Shown here piece by piece: positions 3,328 through 45,243 of a stretch of DNA of 45,352 bases (positions are counted from its first letter, which is position 1; each line of letters opens with the position of its first letter). The notes under the pieces are model-generated. The model was not told where the DNA came from. It worked only from the letters and a program-made list of their open reading frames with translations, and ran no database searches. The DNA is taken from the IMG/VR virus record IMGVR_UViG_3300012940_000043, positions 1-45,352 of that record. One strand, 5' to 3'. Origin of the DNA: a virus (Duplodnaviria > Caudoviricetes). The position numbers and the translations under genes were made by a program.

Positions 3328-3341
3328 CTGAGTTAGCCCAG
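3328..3341 (+). promoter_or_regulatory. Operator-like 14-mer CTGAGTTAGCCCAG abutting phage promoter copy 2
   Basis: Member of a family of about 10 CTG-N8-CAG quasi-palindromes at gene boundaries. Confidence 0.6.
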
Positions 3342-4085: not shown

Positions 4086-4252
4086 GCCTCGCGATCCGCG
4101 CCCTCCTCGCCAAGGCCGCCCGTGACGCCGTGCTGAACGGCGGTCCCGTCTCCACCGACATCCAGATGCAGCTCGCCGCCGAGGGCTACGACCTCGGCCG
4201 GCTGGAACGCGACGTCGAGCGCATCAACGCACAGCGCGCCGCCAACATCTGA
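4082..4252 (+). CDS. Hypothetical protein (56 aa, MSLAIRALLAKAARDAVLNGG...), not in the ORF track
   Basis: TTG start overlaps the upstream TGA (TTGA), GAGG RBS, fills the gap exactly. Confidence 0.65.
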   Translation: MSLAIRALLAKAARDAVLNGGPVSTDIQMQLAAEGYDLGRLERDVERINAQRAANI

Positions 4253-36004: not shown

Positions 36005-37747
36005 GTGACCTCCAAAGATATCCTCCAGGGGGACTTCCTCAAGTTCCTCTGGTACGTCTGGACCAACATCCTGGCGCTCCCAGCGCCGGATCGCATCCAG
36101 CTCGACATCGGCCGGTATCTAGCCGGCGGCCCCAGCAAGCGGTTCATCCAGGCGTTCCGGGGGGTCGGTAAGTCCTTCCTGACGTGCGCCTACGTGGTGT
36201 GGCGGCTGTGGAAGGAGCCCAACCTCAAGGTGCTCATCGTCTCCGCGGGCGAGGACCTCGCGGTCGAGAACGCCTCCCTCATCCAGCAGATCATCTACCA
36301 CCCGGCCGGCGACGAGCTGTGGGCCGAGCTGCGCGGCGGTCGCCGCTCCTCGACCCTGGCCTTCGACGTCGGCAACTGCGTCCCCGACAAGAGCCCGAGC
36401 GTGAAGTGCGCCGGCATCACCGGGCAGATCACTGGTTCGCGCTCCGACATCTTGATCTCCGACGACGTCGAGGTCCCGAAGAACTCCGAGACGGAGACCC
36501 AGCGGGACAAGCTCCGCCGCCTGACGGGCGAGTATGGCGACATCGCCAAGCCCGGCTCCGAGATCATCTACCTGGGCACGCCCCAGAGCATGGAGTCCAT
36601 CTACAAGGGTCTCCCCGAGCGCGGCTACGACGTCCGAATCTGGCCCGCCCGTTACCCGCTGGCTTCCCGCCTGGGCAACTACCTGGGCACCCTCGCGCCG
36701 CTCCTGCTCGCCGACATCGAGGCCGACCCGGACCTCTGCAAGGACACCGGCACGGGCACCGGGGGAGCCCCGACCAACCCCGTCCGGTTCAACGAGCTGG
36801 AGCTGATCCGCAAGGAGGCGGAGCGCGGCAAGGCCGGCTTCCTCCTGCAGTACCAGCTCGACACCTCCCTCGCCGACGCCGACCGCTACCCGCTCAAGAC
36901 CCGTGACCTCATCGTGACCGACGTGGACCGGAAGGTGGCCCCGATGCGTCTCGTGTGGGGCAGCGGGCCAGACCAGATCATCAAGGACCCCGCGCTGCCC
37001 AACGTGGGCTTCGATGGGGACCGCCTGTGCCGGCCGGTGTTCACCTCCCCGGAGTTCTCCGAGTTCACCGGCTCGGTCATGCACATCGACCCCTCGGGCC
37101 GCGGCAAGGACCGCACGGCCTACGTGGTCACCAAGTTCCTCAACGGCTACGTGTTCATCCGGCGCTGGGGCGGGTTCCCGGACGGCTACTCCCCGGAGAC
37201 CCTGCAGCGGATCGCCGAGATCGCGGCCGAGGAGGAGGTCAACCTCATCTGCACCGAGGACAACTTCGGGGACGGTATGTTCGCCCGCCTCCTGGAGCCC
37301 GTGGTCGCCCGCCGCCGGCCAACGCCGGTCGAGGGCTACAAGGTCTCGGGGCAGAAGGAGGTCCGTATCCTCAACTACGTACGTCCCACCCTGGAGCAGC
37401 ACCGGCTGGTGCTCGACGCCACGGTGGCCCGCATGGACCTCGCCCAGCCCGACACGGTTCACCGGGGGCTGTATCAGCTCACGCACCTGACGGATGCCCG
37501 TGGGGCGCTGCGTCACGACGACCTCATCGACGTCCTGGCCCAGGCCCTCGCCTACTGGACCCCGTACATGAACGCCGACGCCCTCAAGGCGGAGGAGACG
37601 TGGAAGCGGAAGCAGGAGGAGGAGTTCGAGCGGGAGTTCTTCGCTGGCACCATCATCGGGGCCGGGCTGGGGAAGCCCACCGGCCAACGACGGGCACCGG
37701 GCAGGAACCTGAGGGGGACCCGGAGGGGAACCTGGGGGAGAGCCTGA
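36005..37747 (+). CDS. gp19: Terminase large subunit
   Basis: QAFRGVGKS Walker A, GQITGSRSD...DDVEVP, LGTPQ, IDPSGRGKD nuclease motif, HDD.ID. Confidence 0.96.
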   Translation: MTSKDILQGDFLKFLWYVWTNILALPAPDRIQLDIGRYLAGGPSKRFIQAFRGVGKSFLTCAYVVWRLWKEPNLKVLIVSAGEDLAVENASLIQQIIYHPAGDELWAELRGGRRSSTLAFDVGNCVPDKSPSVKCAGITGQITGSRSDILISDDVEVPKNSETETQRDKLRRLTGEYGDIAKPGSEIIYLGTPQSMESIYKGLPERGYDVRIWPARYPLASRLGNYLGTLAPLLLADIEADPDLCKDTGTGTGGAPTNPVRFNELELIRKEAERGKAGFLLQYQLDTSLADADRYPLKTRDLIVTDVDRKVAPMRLVWGSGPDQIIKDPALPNVGFDGDRLCRPVFTSPEFSEFTGSVMHIDPSGRGKDRTAYVVTKFLNGYVFIRRWGGFPDGYSPETLQRIAEIAAEEEVNLICTEDNFGDGMFARLLEPVVARRRPTPVEGYKVSGQKEVRILNYVRPTLEQHRLVLDATVARMDLAQPDTVHRGLYQLTHLTDARGALRHDDLIDVLAQALAYWTPYMNADALKAEETWKRKQEEEFEREFFAGTIIGAGLGKPTGQRRAPGRNLRGTRRGTWGRA

Positions 37748-37842
37748 GGTGAACCCTGAGGGGTATAGACCCTACCCTATACCCTACCCTACCTCCTGAT
37801 GGGTGAACCAACAGGTGAACCTACGGGTATACCCTGAGGGTT
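37743..37842. repeat. Cluster of short repeats at the probable genome-end (concatemer junction) region
   Basis: CCTGAGG x3, GGTGAACC x3, ACCCTA x4 right after terL, at the start of a long non-coding stretch. Confidence 0.6.
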
Positions 37843-38592
37843 TAGATAGTGAGGGGAGGCTGGATTTCAAGACCTCCTCCCCTCCTATTCCTCCCAGCCA
37901 AGGGGGTCTTCCTGCCAACGGCAGGCCGGATCGTTTTTGGGTCGGATTTCCGACAGCCCATACCGCGTGACCAAGTTTCCGTAGTCCCCCCAGGCCCCCA
38001 CCTAGCCCCCGGGGGCATACCCTGAGGGCTACCCCTGGGGCCGCGTTGGCATAGGGGCTCGGCACGGCGATTGCCAAGCGATTGGTTTTGTTGAGCTTTG
38101 ATGCCTCTAGGAATGCCAAGGCCGGGCGGGCAGGGCTCCTGAGGAGCACGGCAGGGGCAACCGGCGGGGCTGGCCTTGGACCCTGATGCTCCGGCCCGCG
38201 CCCTTGATGCCCCCTGCTTTTTTCGCCCCAGCCAACCCGGTCCCCTCGTGGTTCTCCTGCCGGGTCTCCTGCCGGGTCTCCGCGCGTCCGCCCTGCGGCT
38301 GGGGAGCCGGGAACATCGGGATGCCCTGCCGCGCCTCCCTGGGGCTCACTGGCGGGCTTCCTGGGGTTGGCCGCTGGGGTAGTAGCCGGACGCCCTGGCG
38401 GGGCTCCCTGGGGCCTCCCTGGGGCTTTGCGGCGGGGGGCACCATGGCCGCGCGTATGTGCGGGCGGGGGCAGGGGGGACCGGGGGAGCCCCTGCATTTT
38501 TTTCCTGAGTCAAAACAGGGAGTTGTGAGATTTCGGTCCATTTTGTGGACTTCTGGCTTTCCTCATTCGATGATCTAGCGCATATGTCGGCT

Positions 38593-38901
38593 TGTCGCTT
38601 CGGCGGCACGGCCACTCCTCCCCGGCCAAGCATAGGGGCTAGCGCCCTGGGGAGGTCACCAACATCGGTTCCTCGGGACCGTGGCGGGGGCGTTAGGTTG
38701 AGCTGGCGTCCCTGGGGCCTTCGGGCCTCGCCGTGAGGCGCTACGGGAGCAACGGGACCTCGGGAGGCGGAGCGGGTACTGCGGCGCGCGGCTTGGTCGG
38801 CGCAGGCGGTTCCCGGGTAACTCCGCCCGGCGGGCTCGACCGCCGCACCCTCCCGAGTGGGGCTAGCCTTGAGAAGGCTTAACGGGGTTGGTGATGGCGT
38901 C
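38593..38901 (+). ncRNA. Unassigned large structured RNA (about 310 nt) ending at the hammerhead 1 cleavage site
   Basis: At least 9 stems, including two UUCG and one GUGA tetraloop, closed by the long-range pair 38656-38663/38887-38894. No credible ORF. Confidence 0.6.
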
Positions 38902-38951
38902 CGCGGCTGATCCGCCGCGCTGATGAGGGCTAGGGAGGCCCGAAACGCCAT
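38894..38951 (+). ncRNA. Hammerhead ribozyme 1 (type III), predicted cleavage after C38901
   Basis: ATGGCGT-C-CGCGGC[TGATCC]GCCGCG-CTGATGA-GGGC[TAGGGAG]GCCC-GAA-ACGCCAT. Confidence 0.93.
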
Positions 38952-39033
38952 GGAACTTCTGTCTGGTCTCGCCGTGATCTTCGGGCTGACCCTCGGCCCG
39001 TTCATCATCGAAACGATTACGGGGCCGCGCTGA
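38950..39033 (+). CDS. Possible 27-aa hydrophobic peptide MELLSGLAVIFGLTLGPFIIETITGPR
   Basis: ATG lies in hammerhead stem III, GGGAGG lies in loop II, and the stop forms a TGATG overlap with the next gene. Confidence 0.5.
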   Translation: MELLSGLAVIFGLTLGPFIIETITGPR

Positions 39034-39260
39034 TGAACCGCGAACGCCGCAAGCTACTGGAGCGGGCCTCGGCCCTCCGGGATGAGGCTCTTGCCCTCCT
39101 AGAGGAGGTCCGCGACGGGGAGCAAGACGCTTTCGACAACATGCCCCCGAGCTTCCAAGAGGGGGAGCGGGGAGCGGCTATGCAAGAGACGCTTAGCGCC
39201 CTGGACGACGTCATCGGCACCCTAGAGGACCTGGATATCCTCGCCATTGGGGAGGGCTGA
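39033..39260 (+). CDS. Early hypothetical protein (75 aa, acidic, helical)
   Basis: MN.ERRK...EQDAFDNMP.SFQ.GERG pattern seen in phage proteins. Confidence 0.75.
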   Translation: MNRERRKLLERASALRDEALALLEEVRDGEQDAFDNMPPSFQEGERGAAMQETLSALDDVIGTLEDLDILAIGEG

Positions 39261-39308
39261 CGACGCATCCATGACTACCTGCCCTCGGCTTTCTAGCCGG
39301 GGGCTTTG

Positions 39309-39363
39309 CGCGTCCGGGGGTGATGCTCCCCCGCTGATGATGGCCGAGCACGGCCGAAACGCG
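39309..39363 (+). ncRNA. Hammerhead ribozyme 2 (type III), predicted cleavage after C39314
   Basis: CGCGT-C-CGGGGG[TGATGCT]CCCCCG-CTGATGA-T-GGCCG[AGCA]CGGCC-GAA-ACGCG. Confidence 0.9.
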
Positions 39364-39392
39364 ACCAACAAGAGAAACGAGAGGGGACAACC

Positions 39393-39497
39393 ATGAGCCC
39401 GCGAGTGACCTTGCGTGAGAGAAGAAGACGGCGCGAGCCCTGGGGGCTCCGCCGGAGAAGACGAGGGCCTCCCGACGAGGCCCCGCGACACCCCTGA
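39393..39497 (+). CDS. Possible 34-aa arginine-rich peptide MSPRVTLRERRRRREPWGLRRRRRGPPDEAPRHP
   Basis: GAGAGGGG RBS and A-rich leader directly after hammerhead 2. Confidence 0.45.
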   Translation: MSPRVTLRERRRRREPWGLRRRRRGPPDEAPRHP

Positions 39498-39565
39498 GTA
39501 AGCCCAGCGGCTGACTTCCTGATGAGCCGGACGGTTGGCGTCCGGTTCATGTGGGAGCCTGAGAC

Positions 39566-40081
39566 ATGCTGAAGCCCTTTGACACCGGCCTTAACGTGGC
39601 CGTTCTCCAAATCGCCTCCCAACTGTTCCCGACAGGGTACGATGTTGGGCCGGAAGCTCCTGACACCCTGCAGAAACTGACGGCGCACATTTCGGCCACC
39701 GGCCGGATGCTCGTCTGGAACGGCGAGAGCGACGCGACCATCTTCGGAGACCCGGAAGTCAACTGGGCCTTCCGCGCGTGGCATGACTGGGCTCACTGGG
39801 CCGGGCAGTTCCCGTTCGACCTCGCCGGGGAGACCAAGGCGGCCGAGCTTCAGGTGTTCCACCTTGTGAAGCTCTATGGAGCCACTGACCGCGTCGTCGG
39901 CTGGGCCTCCCTGATCCTGGCCGAGGTCATCGGGCAGGCGTTCGCGTTCGACCGCACGGGCGAGTTCCCAAAGGATCAGCGGGCGTTTACCCGCCACGTC
40001 GCGCCGAGCTACCGCCGCCGCGCGCAAGAGCTTGTCGAGTCGTTCGCCGCCGACCTCTCCAAGGCGAAGCTCGCCGCGTAA
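39566..40081 (+). CDS. Early hypothetical protein (171 aa, FRAWHD motif)
   Basis: GGGAG RBS, possible metal-binding NWAFRAWHDWAH...E motif. Confidence 0.8.
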   Translation: MLKPFDTGLNVAVLQIASQLFPTGYDVGPEAPDTLQKLTAHISATGRMLVWNGESDATIFGDPEVNWAFRAWHDWAHWAGQFPFDLAGETKAAELQVFHLVKLYGATDRVVGWASLILAEVIGQAFAFDRTGEFPKDQRAFTRHVAPSYRRRAQELVESFAADLSKAKLAA

Positions 40082-40121
40082 CCCCTGAGCAAGCCCAGCG
40101 GTCTCCCCCGGCCGCTGGGCC

Positions 40122-40174
40122 GCGTCCGCCCCTGAAGCCGGGGCGCTGATGAGGGCCGGGCACGGCCGAAACGC
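40122..40174 (+). ncRNA. Hammerhead ribozyme 3 (type III), predicted cleavage after C40126
   Basis: GCGT-C-CGCCCC[TGAAGCC]GGGGCG-CTGATGA-G-GGCCG[GGCA]CGGCC-GAA-ACGC. Confidence 0.9.
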
Positions 40175-40225
40175 ATCCTGACAACCTGAAGGAGGCCCGC
40201 CGGGAAACCCGCGGGGTGATCCGCT

Positions 40226-41158
40226 ATGCGTCGCGTGTTCGATAACGCCATGGTGGCCCACGTCTGGGCTCAACAGGAGCAACCGGAGGGCCGCAGCCAC
40301 AACGGCAACTTCTACTTTGAGGGGCCGACCCTCTACAGCTACGGGGCGCACTACGTGGTGGGCCGCTTCGTCCAGAATGATCGGGGCCAGCGCGCCGTTC
40401 TCCTGAACACCCGTTCCTATTTTCCCACCACGACGAGCCACAAGGGCCTCGCCGAGGAGGCGGTCCATGGGCTGGGCCTGCCGATCTTCCACGTTCCGGG
40501 AGCGACGGTCGGCCACGCCGACAACCTGAGGTACTACGCGGAGGCCGCTGGCAGGGCCGCGGCGACCGCGAGGCGTGCGCATATGGAGTGGAGCCGCGCC
40601 GCCAACAATGAGCGCGCGATGGCTCTCTTGTCGGAGGCCCGCCATTACGCCCGGTTCTTTGCTCTGGACTGGAACGAGCCGGGGCTTGACGGGCTGGCCG
40701 AGGCGGCCGAGGCGGAGGCCGCGCGGGCCGTCGCGGTCGCCCGCCGTCGCCTCGCCGAAAAGCGCGAGAGTGACCGGAGGGCGTTCGAGGAGTGGCTCGC
40801 CGGTGTTCGGGACCACTGCCCGCCCGCCTACGCCATCGACAAGCGCGGGTCTGTCTACATGCGCGCCCGTGGCGACGTCCTGGAGACGTCCCGGGGCGCG
40901 TCGGTGCCCCTGGGGCACGCACTGAAGGTGTTCCGCTTCGTCAAGCGGTGCCGGGAAGCCGGGGAGGAGTTCCGGGCGAACGGCCGGACCATTCGCGTGG
41001 GCCATTTCCAGGTGTCCAAGATCACGGCCCAGGGCGACATGGTCGCGGGCTGTCACTACCTGTCGTGGGAGCGCATCGCCGAGGTCGCCGCAGCCATCGG
41101 GGTTCTGGACCTGGAGCCCAGCTCGGAGGCGGTCGAGGTTCGGCCGGGGGCGGCATGA
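40226..41158 (+). CDS. Early hypothetical protein (310 aa)
   Basis: Long ORF with GGGGTGA RBS and phage-like motifs (NFYFEG.TLYSYG.H, ETSRGA.VP, AGCH). Confidence 0.82.
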   Translation: MRRVFDNAMVAHVWAQQEQPEGRSHNGNFYFEGPTLYSYGAHYVVGRFVQNDRGQRAVLLNTRSYFPTTTSHKGLAEEAVHGLGLPIFHVPGATVGHADNLRYYAEAAGRAAATARRAHMEWSRAANNERAMALLSEARHYARFFALDWNEPGLDGLAEAAEAEAARAVAVARRRLAEKRESDRRAFEEWLAGVRDHCPPAYAIDKRGSVYMRARGDVLETSRGASVPLGHALKVFRFVKRCREAGEEFRANGRTIRVGHFQVSKITAQGDMVAGCHYLSWERIAEVAAAIGVLDLEPSSEAVEVRPGAA

Positions 41159-41250
41159 GCCGTCCCCCGCCTGACGTCCTGTTGGCCCTGGGGTGCATCG
41201 CCCTGGGGCTCCTGGCGCTGGCCTCGTGGCTGGCCGCCTTCGTCTTCTAG
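41155..41250 (+). CDS. Small membrane peptide (31 aa, MSRPPPDVLLALGCIALGLLALASWLAAFVF)
   Basis: ATGA overlap, single TM helix. Confidence 0.5.
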   Translation: MSRPPPDVLLALGCIALGLLALASWLAAFVF

Positions 41251-41262
41251 CAAGAGAGCGCG

Positions 41263-41511
41263 ATGAACGGAGCACGGAAGCGGCTGATCCGCCGCCTGCG
41301 CCGGAACTTCGACGCGTTCGACCTCCATGACAGCAACGCCATGGTGGACAAGGACTATCGGCTGGTCCTGACCGACCCCGTCTATGGTCCCGCGGTCAAC
41401 CCCGCCCTGACCAAGGCGGAAGCCCGCTCGCTCTACGTCCGGTCTGCCCGCCTGCCGGACGGCGGGCTCCGGCCCGCACCCCCTGAGTTAGCCCAGCGTT
41501 TAGCCGCCTGA
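41263..41511 (+). CDS. Early hypothetical protein (82 aa)
   Basis: GAGAG RBS. Its TGA stop lies inside the hammerhead 4 core. Confidence 0.65.
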   Translation: MNGARKRLIRRLRRNFDAFDLHDSNAMVDKDYRLVLTDPVYGPAVNPALTKAEARSLYVRSARLPDGGLRPAPPELAQRLAA

Positions 41512-41558
41512 CGAGCCGGTGAGACCCCGGCGAAACCGCCCGCCTGGGCGGTCGCGGC
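41503..41558 (+). ncRNA. Hammerhead ribozyme 4 (type I), predicted cleavage after C41553
   Basis: GCCGC-CTGACGA-GCCGG[TGAGACC]CCGGC-GAA-ACCGCCC[GCCT]GGGCGGT-C-GCGGC. Confidence 0.92.
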
Positions 41559-41595
41559 CCCGTGCCTGCACCACAACCACAACTGCATCGGAGAG

Positions 41596-42066
41596 ATGAC
41601 CATGTCCTTGGTCCAGTTCGCCGCAGTGCTGACCCGGAATGGCACGGATGGCCGTGTCTACGGGGGCGACTGTAACCTCGTGCATATCGAGGACCACACC
41701 CGGCGGGACTTCGGCCGGGACCTCGCGTTCCAGGTCGAGCACATGATGCGCCACCGCGACCCGGCCTTGCGCCGCCAGAGCGCGGGCGAGCTGGACGGCG
41801 GCGGCTACCCGGGAGCGCGAGAGTTCGCGCCGGCCGCGGGCGTGGTCATCGACTGGACGCGGCCCCTCTGCCCCGGCTGCTACATGATCGCCCTGTTCAA
41901 CGCCGCCGTGGAGCTGGTGCGGGCGAACGGCCAGCCCCTGGCCGAGCTGGGCCGGACCATGGCGCAGGCGTTCTCGCGCCTCGCCGAGGAGACCGTGATC
42001 TCCGCGGCCTACGAGGCGTGCCTCATCGAGGAGATCGCCGTGATCCTGGACGGAGACGCCGAATGA
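41596..42066 (+). CDS. Early hypothetical protein (156 aa, CPGC motif)
   Basis: GGAGA RBS, directly downstream of hammerhead 4. Confidence 0.78.
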   Translation: MTMSLVQFAAVLTRNGTDGRVYGGDCNLVHIEDHTRRDFGRDLAFQVEHMMRHRDPALRRQSAGELDGGGYPGAREFAPAAGVVIDWTRPLCPGCYMIALFNAAVELVRANGQPLAELGRTMAQAFSRLAEETVISAAYEACLIEEIAVILDGDAE

Positions 42067-42503
42067 CGCACGCCGATCTCGTTTCCCTCATGCTCCGGGG
42101 CTCGGCGGGGGCCTTCTTCGCCTCCTCGGGGTATCACAAGCTGTTCGTGCGCGAGGTCCACGAGCGGCTGGTCGGGCTGTTCAAGCGGCTCGGCTGCTAC
42201 AGCCCCGTCACCGAGTGACTGGTCCCTGCCGGGGAGTTCCTCGGGGGCCTCGGGCTGTTGGCTGGGGTGCTGACCCTGCCGGCCGCCGCCGGTCTCATCG
42301 TGATCCTGGCCGGCGCGATCTACCTGGACTGCTTCCGGGAGGTCGCCGCCAAGCGCCCGCGAGACCCGTGCGACTGGGTCGCGAAGGTCCTCTATATGCC
42401 TGAGGCCCAGCTCGTGATCCTGCTCCTGGCGATCATCATCCTGGGGCCGGGCGTCATGAGCGGCGACCACCTCCTCGGGCTCCTGCTCGGGAGGTTCGGA
42501 TGA
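42063..42503 (+). pseudogene. DoxX-family membrane protein interrupted by an in-frame TGA at 42216-42218
   Basis: LR...GAFFASSGYHKL...E*LVPAGEFLGGLGLLAGVLT..AA...LGPG..S.D is one continuous DoxX-like frame across the stop. Confidence 0.75.
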
Positions 42504-42742
42504 GGGGCCTGCCTCCCGGTCACCCGCCCGCGCGGGGCCATCGCCTGAACCTCGTGTTTCACGCCTGCCTCGGCTCGGCCATGGCCCTGGCCGTGGTGGA
42601 CGTTGGGTTGGTCGTCGTCGTCCAGCACTTCCTCCCCGGAACCCTGCGTGACTACGTCGAGAGCCTGCACGGCCCGCTCACCTCCTGGGTGGGCTTCCTC
42701 GGTACGGGCGCTGCGGTCCTGGACCGCTTCGTCCGCATCTGA
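42500..42742 (+). CDS. Small membrane protein (80 aa)
   Basis: GGGAGG RBS, ATGA overlap, two hydrophobic segments. Confidence 0.62.
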   Translation: MRGLPPGHPPARGHRLNLVFHACLGSAMALAVVDVGLVVVVQHFLPGTLRDYVESLHGPLTSWVGFLGTGAAVLDRFVRI

Positions 42743-42840
42743 ACCGGAGCGCCCATCGGTCGGGGGATCGGTGGGCGTCTCAACCATAGGCCGCGCCGAC
42801 CGAGCGCGGTTCAACCTGCATTCATCGAGAGAGAACTACC

Positions 42841-43008
42841 ATGTCGGCTGCAAGACACCTGCAGTTCGCCGATGCGGCGGACGCGCGCGACTACCTGTCC
42901 ATGAACGGCTTCCGCCGGTTCTCGGAGCGGACCTATCAGTCCCGCTACGGCAAGACCGCCCGGTGGAACCGGGGTCCGAACGGCTCTGTCTCCCTGACGA
43001 TCATCTGA
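42841..43008 (+). CDS. Hypothetical protein (55 aa, MSAARHLQFADAADARDYL...), not in the ORF track
   Basis: GAGAGAG RBS, phage-like codon usage, fills the gap. Confidence 0.62.
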   Translation: MSAARHLQFADAADARDYLSMNGFRRFSERTYQSRYGKTARWNRGPNGSVSLTII

Positions 43009-43021
43009 GGAGGCACAGCAC

Positions 43022-43213
43022 ATGGACCCGGAACAAGACTACGTCGAGCGCGTCCGCCAACTCCGCGACTACCTCGCGGAGGAGTACCGCCTGATGAGCG
43101 CGGACGAGCACGCCACCGAGACCGAGCTGTCCCGTGCCGAGGAACGCCTCCGCACGGCCGACGAGATGCTCGAAGACCTGACCGACGAGTACGCCCCCAC
43201 GGTCTCCCCGTAG
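43022..43213 (+). CDS. Small acidic coiled-coil protein (63 aa)
   Basis: Strong GAGGAGG RBS. Confidence 0.75.
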   Translation: MDPEQDYVERVRQLRDYLAEEYRLMSADEHATETELSRAEERLRTADEMLEDLTDEYAPTVSP

Positions 43214-43272
43214 GACTACTCACGGGTTTCCGTCGCCGTCCCCTCCCCATCCGGGGCGGGGGCTGCTACCGT

Positions 43273-43287
43273 GAACGGAATGAGAAC
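43273..43287. promoter_or_regulatory. Alphaproteobacterial LexA (SOS) box GAAC-N7-GAAC
   Basis: GAACGGAATGAGAAC (reverse strand GTTCTCATTCCGTTC), intergenic, upstream of the regulator and integrase. Confidence 0.7.
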
Positions 43288-43334
43288 ACACAGCCGTCCT
43301 GTGGCAATACGTCCATCGAAGCGCAGCTTGCGCA

Positions 43335-43363
43335 TTGACGCAGCTTCTGAGCTAACCCACCTT
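43335..43363 (+). promoter_or_regulatory. Putative host sigma70-type promoter for regulator/integrase with an operator in the spacer
   Basis: TTGACG-N17-CACCTT. The operator-like CTGAGCTAACCCAC lies at 43347-43360. Confidence 0.45.
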
Positions 43364-43550
43364 ATCCGGCCGGGATTGAACACCACGGTCGGTGAGGGGG
43401 ACGGCAGCAGTGCGCCGCGTCCGCAGCATCACCAGGAGTACGAGGTGCCCGAGCCCACAACGTCGAGCCGCAAGTCCGGGGAACTCACCCTGAGGGCTAT
43501 CGACTCGCGCAACCCAGCGGATAGAACCGCGAAGACGGAAGCCAATCAGG

Positions 43551-44006
43551 ATGCAAACCATGACAGCGGCCCGCCCCGGCCGGAGGGAGGGAGGCCAACG
43601 CTCAGCGAGCTTGGACAAGACTTCCGCCGGAGACTTCGAGCGTTTGGCGGCGGCGATGAAGGTGTTCGCTGCCGCGGTTCCGGAGCGGACTACCATTAGG
43701 CAGTCCCTCGCGCTCCTCCTCGTCTGCTACGCCAGCGCCATGGGACGCAGCATCACGCTGTCTGACATCCAGGACTTGGCTGGTGAAGACTTGGAGGGAC
43801 GACCCCTCATCGGGCAGACGATAGAGCGGACGCTCGACACCTTCAGGGTCCCGACCCATCGGACCCCCAACGCCCTCGGCTGGGTGACCACCGAGGAGGA
43901 CCCGCTCGACCGCCGCCGGAAGTACCTGAAGCTCACCGCCGAGGGCATCTCCGCCGCCAACGAGCTGATTACCGCCCTGCGCACCGTCACGGGCGACGAG
44001 GAGTAG
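43551..44006 (+). CDS. MarR-like winged-helix regulator (candidate repressor)
   Basis: ITLSDIQ helix, LGWVTTEEDPLDRRRKYLKLTAEG MarR wing motif, directly before the integrase. Start uncertain. Confidence 0.8.
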   Translation: MQTMTAARPGRREGGQRSASLDKTSAGDFERLAAAMKVFAAAVPERTTIRQSLALLLVCYASAMGRSITLSDIQDLAGEDLEGRPLIGQTIERTLDTFRVPTHRTPNALGWVTTEEDPLDRRRKYLKLTAEGISAANELITALRTVTGDEE

Positions 44007-44011
44007 CTGAC

Positions 44012-45121
44012 ATGAACCTCCGCCGGAAGCCAAACGGCGTCTGGCTGGTGGACTACGAGGACCCCGAGACCGGGGCTCGCCGACGTGTGTCCACCGGCCT
44101 GACCGACAAGAGCGAGGCCATGAAGAAGGCCCGCGACATCATCCTCGGGCTGGACACCAAGTCCGCCAAGCCGCGCGCGCCGGGCGCAGGCCCCGCCGGG
44201 AAGTCCTCGGGCTTCACGATGGCCGACCTGTTCCGCAAGTGCGAGCTGACCGTCTGGTCGCCCCGGGAGTGCAAGTCCCAGGCGACCGTGCGGTCCAACC
44301 TGAAGTACCTCTCCGCCAAGCTCGGCGACGAGCTGGTGACGGACATGACGTACTCCAGGCTGGAGAAGCTGGCCGAGGACATGTTCGCCGAGGGACTGGC
44401 GGCCGGCACCGTGAAGCGCAAGCTCGACATGGTGTCCAAGGCCCTGACCATGGCGACCAAGTGGACGGACGAGGCCGGCCGGCCCTACCTCATGGGCAAG
44501 CCCGCCTTCCCCCAGATCACGGCCCGCAACCAGCGCGACCGGGTCCTGGAGCCGAAGGAGGAGGCGGCAGTGTTCGTCGCCATCGCCGAGCGGCGGCTGA
44601 AGGAGCCGACGCGCGACTGGCGGCGTTTCGGCATCCTGATCCGGTGGCTGCTCGACACGGGCTGCCGCCTGGGCGAGGCGCTGAACGTCCGCGACACGTT
44701 CCTGGAGGAGGAGGGTACGGGCAACGAGCGGACCACGTTCGTCACCTTCCCCCGCTACACGACCAAGAACGACAAGCCCCGGAGGCTGCCCCTGACCTCG
44801 GCCATCGAGGCGGAGCTGCAGTACCTGAAGATGGCGGCCATCGACGGCCGGCTGTTCCCGCTGAAGCCGGCGACCGTCTGGTACATGTGGGACAACATCC
44901 GCGGCGACCTGAAAGCGAAGGGCTACGACCTCTCCGACGTCGTGCTCCACACCATGCGGCACACCTGCGGGACCCGGCTGGCGAAGAGCCTGCCCATCCA
45001 CAAGGTCTCCCTGTGGCTCGGGCACAGCTCCGTCCAGGTCACCATGGACCACTACATGCACCTCCAGAGCACCGACTTCCTGGACGCGAAGGGCGTCCTC
45101 GAAGCTCATCCTCTGAGTTAG
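44012..45121 (+). CDS. int: Tyrosine integrase
   Basis: Catalytic set TGCRLGE (R), TKND (K), HTMRH (H-x-x-R), LGH, HYMH (Y). N-terminal arm-binding-like domain. Confidence 0.96.
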   Translation: MNLRRKPNGVWLVDYEDPETGARRRVSTGLTDKSEAMKKARDIILGLDTKSAKPRAPGAGPAGKSSGFTMADLFRKCELTVWSPRECKSQATVRSNLKYLSAKLGDELVTDMTYSRLEKLAEDMFAEGLAAGTVKRKLDMVSKALTMATKWTDEAGRPYLMGKPAFPQITARNQRDRVLEPKEEAAVFVAIAERRLKEPTRDWRRFGILIRWLLDTGCRLGEALNVRDTFLEEEGTGNERTTFVTFPRYTTKNDKPRRLPLTSAIEAELQYLKMAAIDGRLFPLKPATVWYMWDNIRGDLKAKGYDLSDVVLHTMRHTCGTRLAKSLPIHKVSLWLGHSSVQVTMDHYMHLQSTDFLDAKGVLEAHPLS

Positions 45122-45229: not shown

Positions 45230-45243
45230 CTCTCACCGCCACC
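45230..45243 (+). repeat. attR core CTCTCACCGCCACC
   Basis: Duplicate of the tRNA 3' end, 109 bp after int. Confidence 0.93.

Follow-up and report, generated by a model that had tools for sequence, protein, structure and literature searches.

Many self-cleaving ribozymes lie beside phage genes, and their purpose has been called largely elusive, the processing of polycistronic transcripts having only been suggested (PMC6765202). Tandem hammerheads lying between prophage genes were described by Perreault et al. (2011; PMC3088659) in Azorhizobium caulinodans and Agrobacterium tumefaciens. In that paper, approximately 40% of hammerheads, of all three types, have a predicted pseudoknot between stem I and stem II. 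The tandem sets were found to cleave in vitro and, in the case of A. tumefaciens, in E. coli as well, and a loss of rate on disruption with rescue by compensatory changes was demonstrated for a type II loop–tail pseudoknot only. Here, we analysed three type III hammerheads in the phage record IMGVR_UViG_3300012940_000043 (Caudoviricetes), the whole of which, 45352 nucleotides (nt), is referred to below as the window. An initial annotation of this DNA had noted that loops I and II of each copy are complementary, and had taken their compensatory changes as a sign of activity in vivo and of a possible phage-specific subfamily. Our comparison with homologs confirms the covariation and suggests in addition that copy 1 and dozens of its relatives likely carry the Shine–Dalgarno sequence of the next gene inside the docking contact.

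A descriptor scan of the window found exactly three type III motifs, all on the + strand and at the place given in the initial annotation, and none in 100 dinucleotide shuffles. Their parts are as follows (bp, base pairs).

38894..38951, + strand: type III hammerhead 1, with the cut predicted to fall behind C38901; stem I at 38902-38907/38914-38919; loop I at 38908-38913 (UGAUCC); core 38920-38926; stem II 38927-38931/38937-38941 with a U.G closing pair; loop II AGGGA 38932-38936; GAAA 38942-38945; stem III of 7 bp, including the A and U of the next start codon.
39309..39363, + strand: type III hammerhead 2, with the cut predicted to fall behind C39314; loop I at 39321-39327 (UGAUGCU); core 39334-39340; extra U39341; stem II of 5 bp; loop II AGCA 39347-39350; stem III of 5 bp.
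40122..40174, + strand: type III hammerhead 3, with the cut predicted to fall behind C40126; loop I at 40133-40139 (UGAAGCC); core 40146-40152; extra G40153; stem II of 5 bp; loop II GGCA 40159-40162; stem III of 4 bp only, with competing folds predicted.

All three copies share a GUC site, a 6-bp stem I, the core CUGAUGA, a 5-bp stem II and GAAAC, and each of them has CUGANGA, GAAA and NUH arranged as in type III, both stem I and stem II ending in a loop. The three loops I and the single extra nucleotide after CUGAUGA in copies 2 and 3 had been read correctly in the initial annotation. Its loop II for copy 1, UAGGGAG, was wrong, as a fifth stem II pair (U.G) leaves AGGGA, which ends in A like the loops of the family. 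The three motifs were also recovered by a covariance model for which 33 homologs, but none of the window copies, had been used; copies 1, 2 and 3 scored 79.3, 69.1 and 47.1 bits, and the next match 11.6. The Rfam model RF00008 (Hammerhead_3; gathering score 48.5 bits) gave 31.4 bits for copy 2, left copies 1 and 3 unlisted, and matched 4 of 10 homolog loci at 32-43.5 bits; at the gathering score, Rfam reported tRNA only over the window. Judged by sequence, these ribozymes form a recognisable type III subfamily lying below the Rfam Hammerhead_3 cut-off, and the homolog alignment and covariance model capture a subfamily missed by that threshold. In 35 sequences selected by geometry, stems I and II were 100% paired, pairing being the parser's own selection criterion; double changes were found at 6/6 stem I and 4/5 stem II pairs, and stem III was 97.1% paired. 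On the basis of this conservation, all three copies are predicted to self-cleave.

The evidence for loop–loop pairing came from a wider set. Five pattern scans, together with five named phage regions, yielded at least 331 distinct motifs of type III in which stem I had 6 bp, loop I 6-8 nt and stem II 4 bp or more. No pattern fixed any proposed base of the kissing helix, and some fixed U1, a purine as the second base, the terminal A or the extra U. The counts refer to the matches listed and do not draw on a MAFFT alignment of 82 members of mixed length, in which stem II was misaligned. From 129 seven-base loops I, 124 were used (U first, loop II ending in A, window excluded), and in these positions 5-7 paired with loop II positions -2 to -4 in 86, 91 and 66 cases respectively. 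All three pairs were present in 60 of the 124, compared with a mean of 16.0 and a maximum of 27 in 5000 permutations of loop II. These permutation statistics ignore relatedness; after thinning, three-pair kisses numbered 44 against 12.4 permuted for 85 sequences and 23 against 5.4 for 51 sequences. A helix of at least three pairs was found in 72 of 328 non-window motifs (13.6 expected), the kissing triplets including GCU/AGC (32), GCC/GGC (19), CCU/AGG (6) and CCC/GGG (3). In the 35 sequences for which geometry was the sole criterion of choice, and which include copies 2 and 3 of the window, the kiss was 94.3% paired with double changes at all three pairs. With later loci added, loops II ending in GGA faced CC in loop I in 117/117 cases and those ending in GCA faced GC in 64/75, and loops ending in AAA never faced CC (0/118). 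Within single loci the pairs were matched copy by copy, a loop I making on average 2.22 pairs with its own loop II (n=32) versus 1.52 with that of another copy (n=48).

Thus the covariation claimed in the initial annotation was borne out, and the strong evidence for it comes from the homologs and not from the three window copies. Although the chance of the complementarity seen in the window is approximately 0.001-0.007 if the loops are independent, little weight can be put on these copies by themselves: copies 2 and 3 differ by one double change only, and three pairs, one of them G.U, still form when loop I of copy 2 is set against the loop II of copy 3. Loops I and II are Watson–Crick complementary and covary, as in hammerheads with a stem I–stem II pseudoknot, and the comparison indicates a covarying helix of 2-3 bp in which the last bases of loop I pair with positions -2 to -4 of loop II. 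Copy 1 falls into a CC/GG subclass that has two pairs and a loop II of 5 nt, and so does the first of the hammerheads in Caulobacter phage S2B. The four-pair helix proposed earlier for copy 2 did not survive, as the base opposite the terminal A varies freely, and the statement that every loop I begins with UGA held for the three copies and not for the family, which has U-R-N, with UGA in 41/72 three-pair kissers. A single natural loop swap was seen among the loci examined (L029:2500-2555, - strand), where loop I ACGGCA and loop II UGAUGCC are family loops on opposite stems.

The loop ends described by Dufour et al. (2009), a 5' U in loop I and a 3' A in loop II, are found in all three copies. 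The terminal A of loop II was present in 111/115 motifs where the pattern did not impose it, and in a set with no loop letter fixed the U and the A were each present in 28/31. In the CChMVd, sTRSV and Schistosoma hammerheads, the terminal A and the U that opens loop I form a reverse Hoogsteen pair (PMC2632901, PMC6155905), and in sTRSV a second U completes a U-A-U triple, pair and triple being known from structures and mutants (PMC2632901). In the window family, the base in register with the terminal A (position 4) was U in 73, A in 19, G in 17 and C in 15 of 124 loops, a free variation which means that U4-A is not a covarying pair. The penultimate base of loop I is C in all three copies and covaries with loop II position -3 or -2. 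We infer that a U1-A reverse Hoogsteen pair serves as the anchor, with U4 as an optional third partner and two to three Watson–Crick pairs behind it. The extra nucleotide after A9 accompanied a 5-bp stem II, a stem of this length being present in 16/17 motifs with the extra nucleotide versus 3/14 lacking it (Fisher p 9e-5, relatedness ignored; loci L001-L090). De la Pena and Flores reportedly described in 2001 an extra core nucleotide in a viroid hammerhead, positioned after A9.

The loop II contact of copy 1 overlaps a second signal, which involves the following elements (ORF, open reading frame; aa, amino acids).

38933..38938, + strand: GGGAGG, Shine–Dalgarno-like, in loop II and the stem II 3' strand of hammerhead 1, 11 nt before the ATG at 38950.
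38950..39033, + strand: hydrophobic 27-aa ORF, beginning inside stem III of hammerhead 1, its stop codon overlapping the next start (TGATG).
39033..39260, + strand: 75-aa gene, phrog_4068, function unknown, with no clear Shine–Dalgarno sequence of its own.

GGGAGG at 38933..38938 is likely to be the ribosome-binding site of the next gene, and the 75-aa gene is likely to be translationally coupled to the 27-aa ORF. The letters 'gcgctgatga' at 39029, considered as a hammerhead core, are the stop/start overlap and were rejected.

The same arrangement recurs in the family (counts again refer to the matches listed). In the first data set, in which 320 of 331 motifs had enough flank, a start codon directly followed GAAAC in 16/21 ribozymes containing GGAGG versus 11/299 others. 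An independent search for GGAGG hammerheads, with patterns containing no start codon, gave at least 84 new motifs, of which 32 had an adjacent start; a separate Shine–Dalgarno sequence with a start codon within 70 nt was present in 0/32 of these versus 33/52 of the others. The same start test gave 13-18/84 at offsets of 15-35, where separately led genes start, and 3-10/84 at offsets of 45-75, the upstream background being 5.8%. Overall, adjacent starts were found in 48/105 GGAGG ribozymes versus 7/308 others (413 of 418 motifs with enough flank), in 24/27 when the word was AGGAGG, and in 15/27 versus 2/139 after thinning to <70% identity. The 48 downstream ORFs fall into 40 BLAST families and look like real genes, to judge by the following: their rate of PHROG matches (6/32 new adjacent-start ORFs versus 5/36 control ORFs with a separate Shine–Dalgarno sequence); one family in which the start position is kept while the codon switches between ATG, GTG and TTG; another in which a homolog, aligned from residue 1, is preceded by a ribosome site of the usual kind; and the agreement of the predicted starts with those annotated for S2B gp065c and jiawei JDBV08_00750.

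The position and strand of the hammerheads are also conserved. The window is a whole T7-like phage record with a single-subunit RNA polymerase, primase/helicase, DNA polymerase, portal, capsid and terminase, and 3' of the terminase it contains small genes, then a regulator and then an integrase.

36005..37747, + strand: terminase large subunit, the last late gene before the genome-end region.
43551-44006, + strand: transcription regulator, at the end of the early region.
44012-45121, + strand: integrase, closing the early region.

The hammerhead stretch between terminase and integrase is the early region of a linear phage genome. The RNA polymerase is 64% identical to that of S2B, with which the gene order is common, and equally 64% identical to that of 'Mycobacterium phage jiawei' (L214, OR464703.1), whose recorded host looks unexpected for the group. 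The host is probably an alphaproteobacterium and the record probably a prophage. A tRNA-Ser(GGA) lies at the left end (32-121), and a short repeat of its 3' end follows the integrase at 45230-45241, which fits a prophage excised at attachment sites. A search for relatives of the integrase in viral contigs found none, and a sigma-70 promoter scan of 37700-44100 gave no sites. Among 80 loci collected by terminase similarity alone, 36 were close and had at least 3 kilobases (kb) downstream; hammerheads of type I, II or III were present downstream of the terminase in 15 of these, all on the coding strand (some loci are near-duplicates), and none occurred in the 625144 bases upstream of the terminase across the terminase-similarity loci. 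That type I, II or III all serve at the same place points to the cut itself as the selected function.

Taken together, intact cores, covarying kiss, conserved position and strand, and the link between GGAGG and the start codon point to a reading that we consider quite probable, with docking geometry, cleavage and use of the ribosome site as its conjectural parts. The type III hammerheads, together with a fourth of type I described below, would self-cleave the early transcript into gene-sized pieces (the four predicted cuts are 413, 812 and 1427 nt apart), with stems I and II docked through the 2-3 bp loop–loop helix and the proposed U-A contact. The cut would most likely be constitutive and co-transcriptional and, to judge by known hammerheads, fast at low Mg2+, giving products that start with a 5'-OH and carry two hairpins there. 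The early transcript of T7 is cut by RNase III, and the ribozymes would be a self-made counterpart of that processing. In copy 1, the docked loop would double as a Shine–Dalgarno sequence, an economy co-opted from the CC/GG kiss, and the resulting ribosome site would be structured, rather distant and probably weak, becoming usable once the cut ribozyme undocks.

Several results pull in the other direction. For the kiss, two of the three pairs (second and third) were individually weak at 51 sequences, 33 and 113 of 5000 permutations reaching them. For cleavage, folding models favoured competing structures for copies 2 and 3 and, in a wider context, for copy 1: the predicted probability of stem III was 0.17-0.29 in copy 2 and 0.02-0.08 in copy 3, by models that omit core and kiss, and for copy 1 it fell to 0 in an 80-nt context in a secondary-structure model. 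No hammerhead was found by the scan in 21/36 close terminase relatives, and the ribozymes therefore look dispensable or replaceable. For the ribosome site, 57/105 GGAGG ribozymes had no adjacent start; the embedded site lies 10-12 nt from the start in 46/48 cases (the ribozyme's GAAAC sets a floor of approximately 9 nt), compared with a mode of 6-7 for separate sites; and in the named phages and loci examined the 27-aa ORF had no homolog except in one locus identical to the window, so that the site of copy 1 rests on family analogy and on the TGATG overlap with the 75-aa PHROG gene. These last three points are what would be seen if GGAGG were a mere by-product of a CC/GG kiss and a G-rich stem, with the adjacent ORFs translated without it or untranslated. 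We regard such an origin as distinctly improbable in view of the excess of adjacent starts behind GGAGG, which is strongest for AGGAGG, its recurrence in 40 gene families, and the fact that an adjacent start excludes a separate Shine–Dalgarno sequence with its own start.

The overlap of kiss and ribosome site might also be regulatory. In a cleavage-gated switch, the docked uncut ribozyme would hide the Shine–Dalgarno sequence in the kiss and stem II, and often the start codon in stem III, and the cut would turn the gene on. Loop I CC(U/C) does pair with GG(A) of the Shine–Dalgarno sequence, the start codon lies partly or wholly within stem III in 24/48 cases, and stem II is closed by a weak U.G pair in 42/48 adjacent-start versus 19/57 other GGAGG ribozymes; the predicted opening cost drops by 4.2 kcal/mol (copy 1) and 7.3 kcal/mol (S2B) after the cut, and bacterial aptazymes are an engineered precedent (PMC5367253). 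However, over the 48 cases the median change in opening energy was 0.3 kcal/mol, the same as for 103 controls (p 0.45; secondary structure only), because stem II, which hides most of the site, outlasts the cut, and a fast constitutive ribozyme would leave little time for an off state. The site is not less structured after the cut across the 48 cases, and a general cleavage-gated switch is thus unsupported by folding, a negative that is soft since the calculation omits kiss and core. On balance we think the switch unlikely, with perhaps a minor chance of being right. Much the same doubt attaches to a larger claim, which we put forward tentatively: that a widespread natural phage 'ribozyme-RBS cassette' (RBS, ribosome-binding site) exists, a 50-nt hammerhead whose docking contact is an anti-Shine–Dalgarno/Shine–Dalgarno pair, placed before at least 40 unrelated early genes, its self-cleavage both making the mRNA 5' end and switching on translation. 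If true, this cassette would be a natural cleavage-activated translation switch and a concrete function for bacterial and phage hammerheads.

The coupling could also run in reverse, with ribosomes on the embedded site melting stems II and III and blocking or delaying cleavage, so that the cut depends on translation. By geometry, a ribosome footprint would span stem II, GAAAC and the stem III 3' strand. The site and start codon are transcribed last, though, so that the ribozyme can fold at about the same moment, and members without an embedded site have an identical architecture. We consider this order of events very improbable, and keep to constitutive cutting with a co-opted ribosome site.

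The fourth ribozyme, missed in the initial annotation, lies further downstream.

41503..41558, + strand: hammerhead 4, type I, predicted cut after C41553; stem I of 5 bp; core CUGACGA 41508-41514; stem II of 5 bp with loop UGAGACC; GAAA 41532-41535; stem III of 7 bp.

In its relatives (S2B, L261 and twice in L670; loci L213, L261 and L670), GAGAC in loop II pairs with a GUCUC tail after stem I. Hammerhead 4 of the window keeps GAGAC, but its tail reads CCCGU and the loop–tail pairing looks lost. At 39491-39552, what looks like a half-copy of its 5' part (repeat + CUGAUGA + GCCGG, 80% over 40 nt) is joined to a 12-bp hairpin, possibly a relic of recombination; CUGAUGA at 39520 was rejected as a hammerhead as it is without GAAA. 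In another viral contig (locus L068), seven near-identical type I hammerheads lie within 3.4 kb. One may ask whether these elements are cassettes, selfish or in decay, that recombination has carried from one early-gene module to another, with copies 3 and 4 no longer cutting efficiently. The 4-bp stem III and competing folds of copy 3, the loss in copy 4 of a tail pairing found in four relatives, the half-copy without GAAA and the patchy presence among relatives would all suit such a history. On the other hand, the cores are intact in all four copies, loop pairs are matched copy by copy within loci, and position and strand are strictly kept, and we rate the decay account as having only a low probability.

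The remaining features of the hammerhead stretch are as follows.

39281..39304, + strand: 10-bp hairpin directly 5' of hammerhead 2 (z -4.8 for 39262-39310), which by prediction would come to lie close to the 3' terminus of the first product of cleavage.
39393..39497, + strand: Arg-rich 34-aa ORF, 3' of hammerhead 2, with its own Shine–Dalgarno-like sequence.
39566..40081, + strand: 171-aa gene, phrog_7806, function unknown.
40093..40120, + strand: 11-bp hairpin directly 5' of hammerhead 3 (z -4.0 for 40080-40125).
40226..41158, + strand: 310-aa gene, phrog_7247, function unknown, 3' of hammerhead 3.

In the loci collected, the 34-aa ORF had no credible homolog, with low-complexity matches only. 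The homolog of the 171-aa gene in locus L126 begins directly after a hammerhead bearing a Shine–Dalgarno sequence. Ahead of the 310-aa gene (40189-40226), AAGGAGG lies 30 nt before the start with an 8-bp hairpin in between, and a second site, GGUGAUC, overlaps the 3' end of that hairpin. An 82-aa ORF at 41263-41511, possibly a gene remnant, weakly matches T7-type protein kinase profiles at their end (E 1e-5). Past the terminase gene, short G-rich repeats with CCTGAGG occupy 37704-37761 and 37820-38031, the expected place of T7-like genome-end repeats. A strand-biased repeat, CTGAGYWAGCCCAGCG, has exact + strand copies at 3328, 39494, 40085 and 41483, one right after the RNA polymerase stop codon and three at early-gene ends, and weaker copies at 4249, 43347 and 45113. 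Its 10-letter core occurs 8 times versus 0.34 expected and is absent from S2B and jiawei; CTGAGYWAGCCCAGCG is a candidate phage promoter or operator.

The family probably extends beyond phages. Of 18 bacterial-genome loci, 16 were examined (46/85 ORFs scanned): three had a terminase, seven lacked one within 4 kb but contained an integrase, invertase or transposase, and no clear marker was seen in the others. In five bacterial genomes, with 150 candidates scored per genome, all model matches lay within one locus. With several members beside integrases, invertases or transposases and no terminase nearby, 'phage-specific' seems too narrow a term. The subfamily proposed in the initial annotation therefore stands as a recognisable one, by virtue of the covarying loops of its homologs, but is probably not confined to phages and is not new. 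One oligonucleotide in PMC3088659, JP137 'HH Aca anti-HH2' (A. tumefaciens in the description column), has a reverse complement in which UGAUGCC can be read by eye as loop I and AUGGCA as loop II. A hammerhead with the same loops was thus tested by Perreault et al. and cleaves in vitro, so that the subfamily already has a tested member. In Martelella mangrovi (L219:4001-5506), three to four kissing-type hammerheads flank an anti-restriction gene beside an integrase, in the same layout as published for A. tumefaciens.

The loop pairing is therefore of a published kind and adds little by itself. Open-licence papers and preprints yielded no report of a natural type III hammerhead with a Shine–Dalgarno sequence in its docking loop, and no paper on hammerheads in Autographiviridae. 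The embedded Shine–Dalgarno sequence would tie the ribozyme physically to translation initiation of the next gene, and it recurs before 40 unrelated ORF families. Since it is present in the cultured Caulobacter phage S2B (host CB15), the question of function is testable by a few point mutants, and a ribozyme with such a site would be a compact natural insulator-plus-ribosome-site part.

As in the sets of Perreault et al., the hammerheads of the window stand in tandem around small genes, followed by a regulator and an integrase. In the relative tested there, stem II has 4 bp and the extra nucleotide is absent; in the main text of that paper the words 'ribosome', 'Shine' and 'translation' do not occur. 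The type III hammerheads with UNmYN/RNnA loops (CChMVd, sTRSV; Dufour et al. 2009, PMC2632901; RF00008) have in common with the window family the loop I 5' U, the loop II 3' A, a 6-7 nt loop I and the type III topology. They differ in that loop I of the window family ends in two to three covarying Watson–Crick bases that pair with loop II, and that its candidate triple U is optional and at position 4, not next to last. In the PK hammerhead (Zhan et al. 2024, PMC11300833), a Watson–Crick pseudoknot likewise supports the hammerhead core, but there a 6-bp pseudoknot replaces helix II, whereas here a 5-bp hairpin stem II coexists with a 2-3 bp kiss, and membership of that class was rejected. Self-cleaving ribozymes beside start codons are also described in fungal and plant RNA viruses (PMC13725137); these are type I motifs in eukaryotic hosts, and Shine–Dalgarno does not occur in the text. 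The nearest precedent for the embedded ribosome site is provided by the engineered bacterial aptazymes reviewed in PMC5367253, hammerheads placed ahead of a gene that contain its ribosome-binding site and free the Shine–Dalgarno sequence when they cleave. The aptazymes are synthetic and ligand-controlled, whereas the type found in the window is natural and has no aptamer, and its site would lie in loop II and stem II and stay on the hairpin after the cut.

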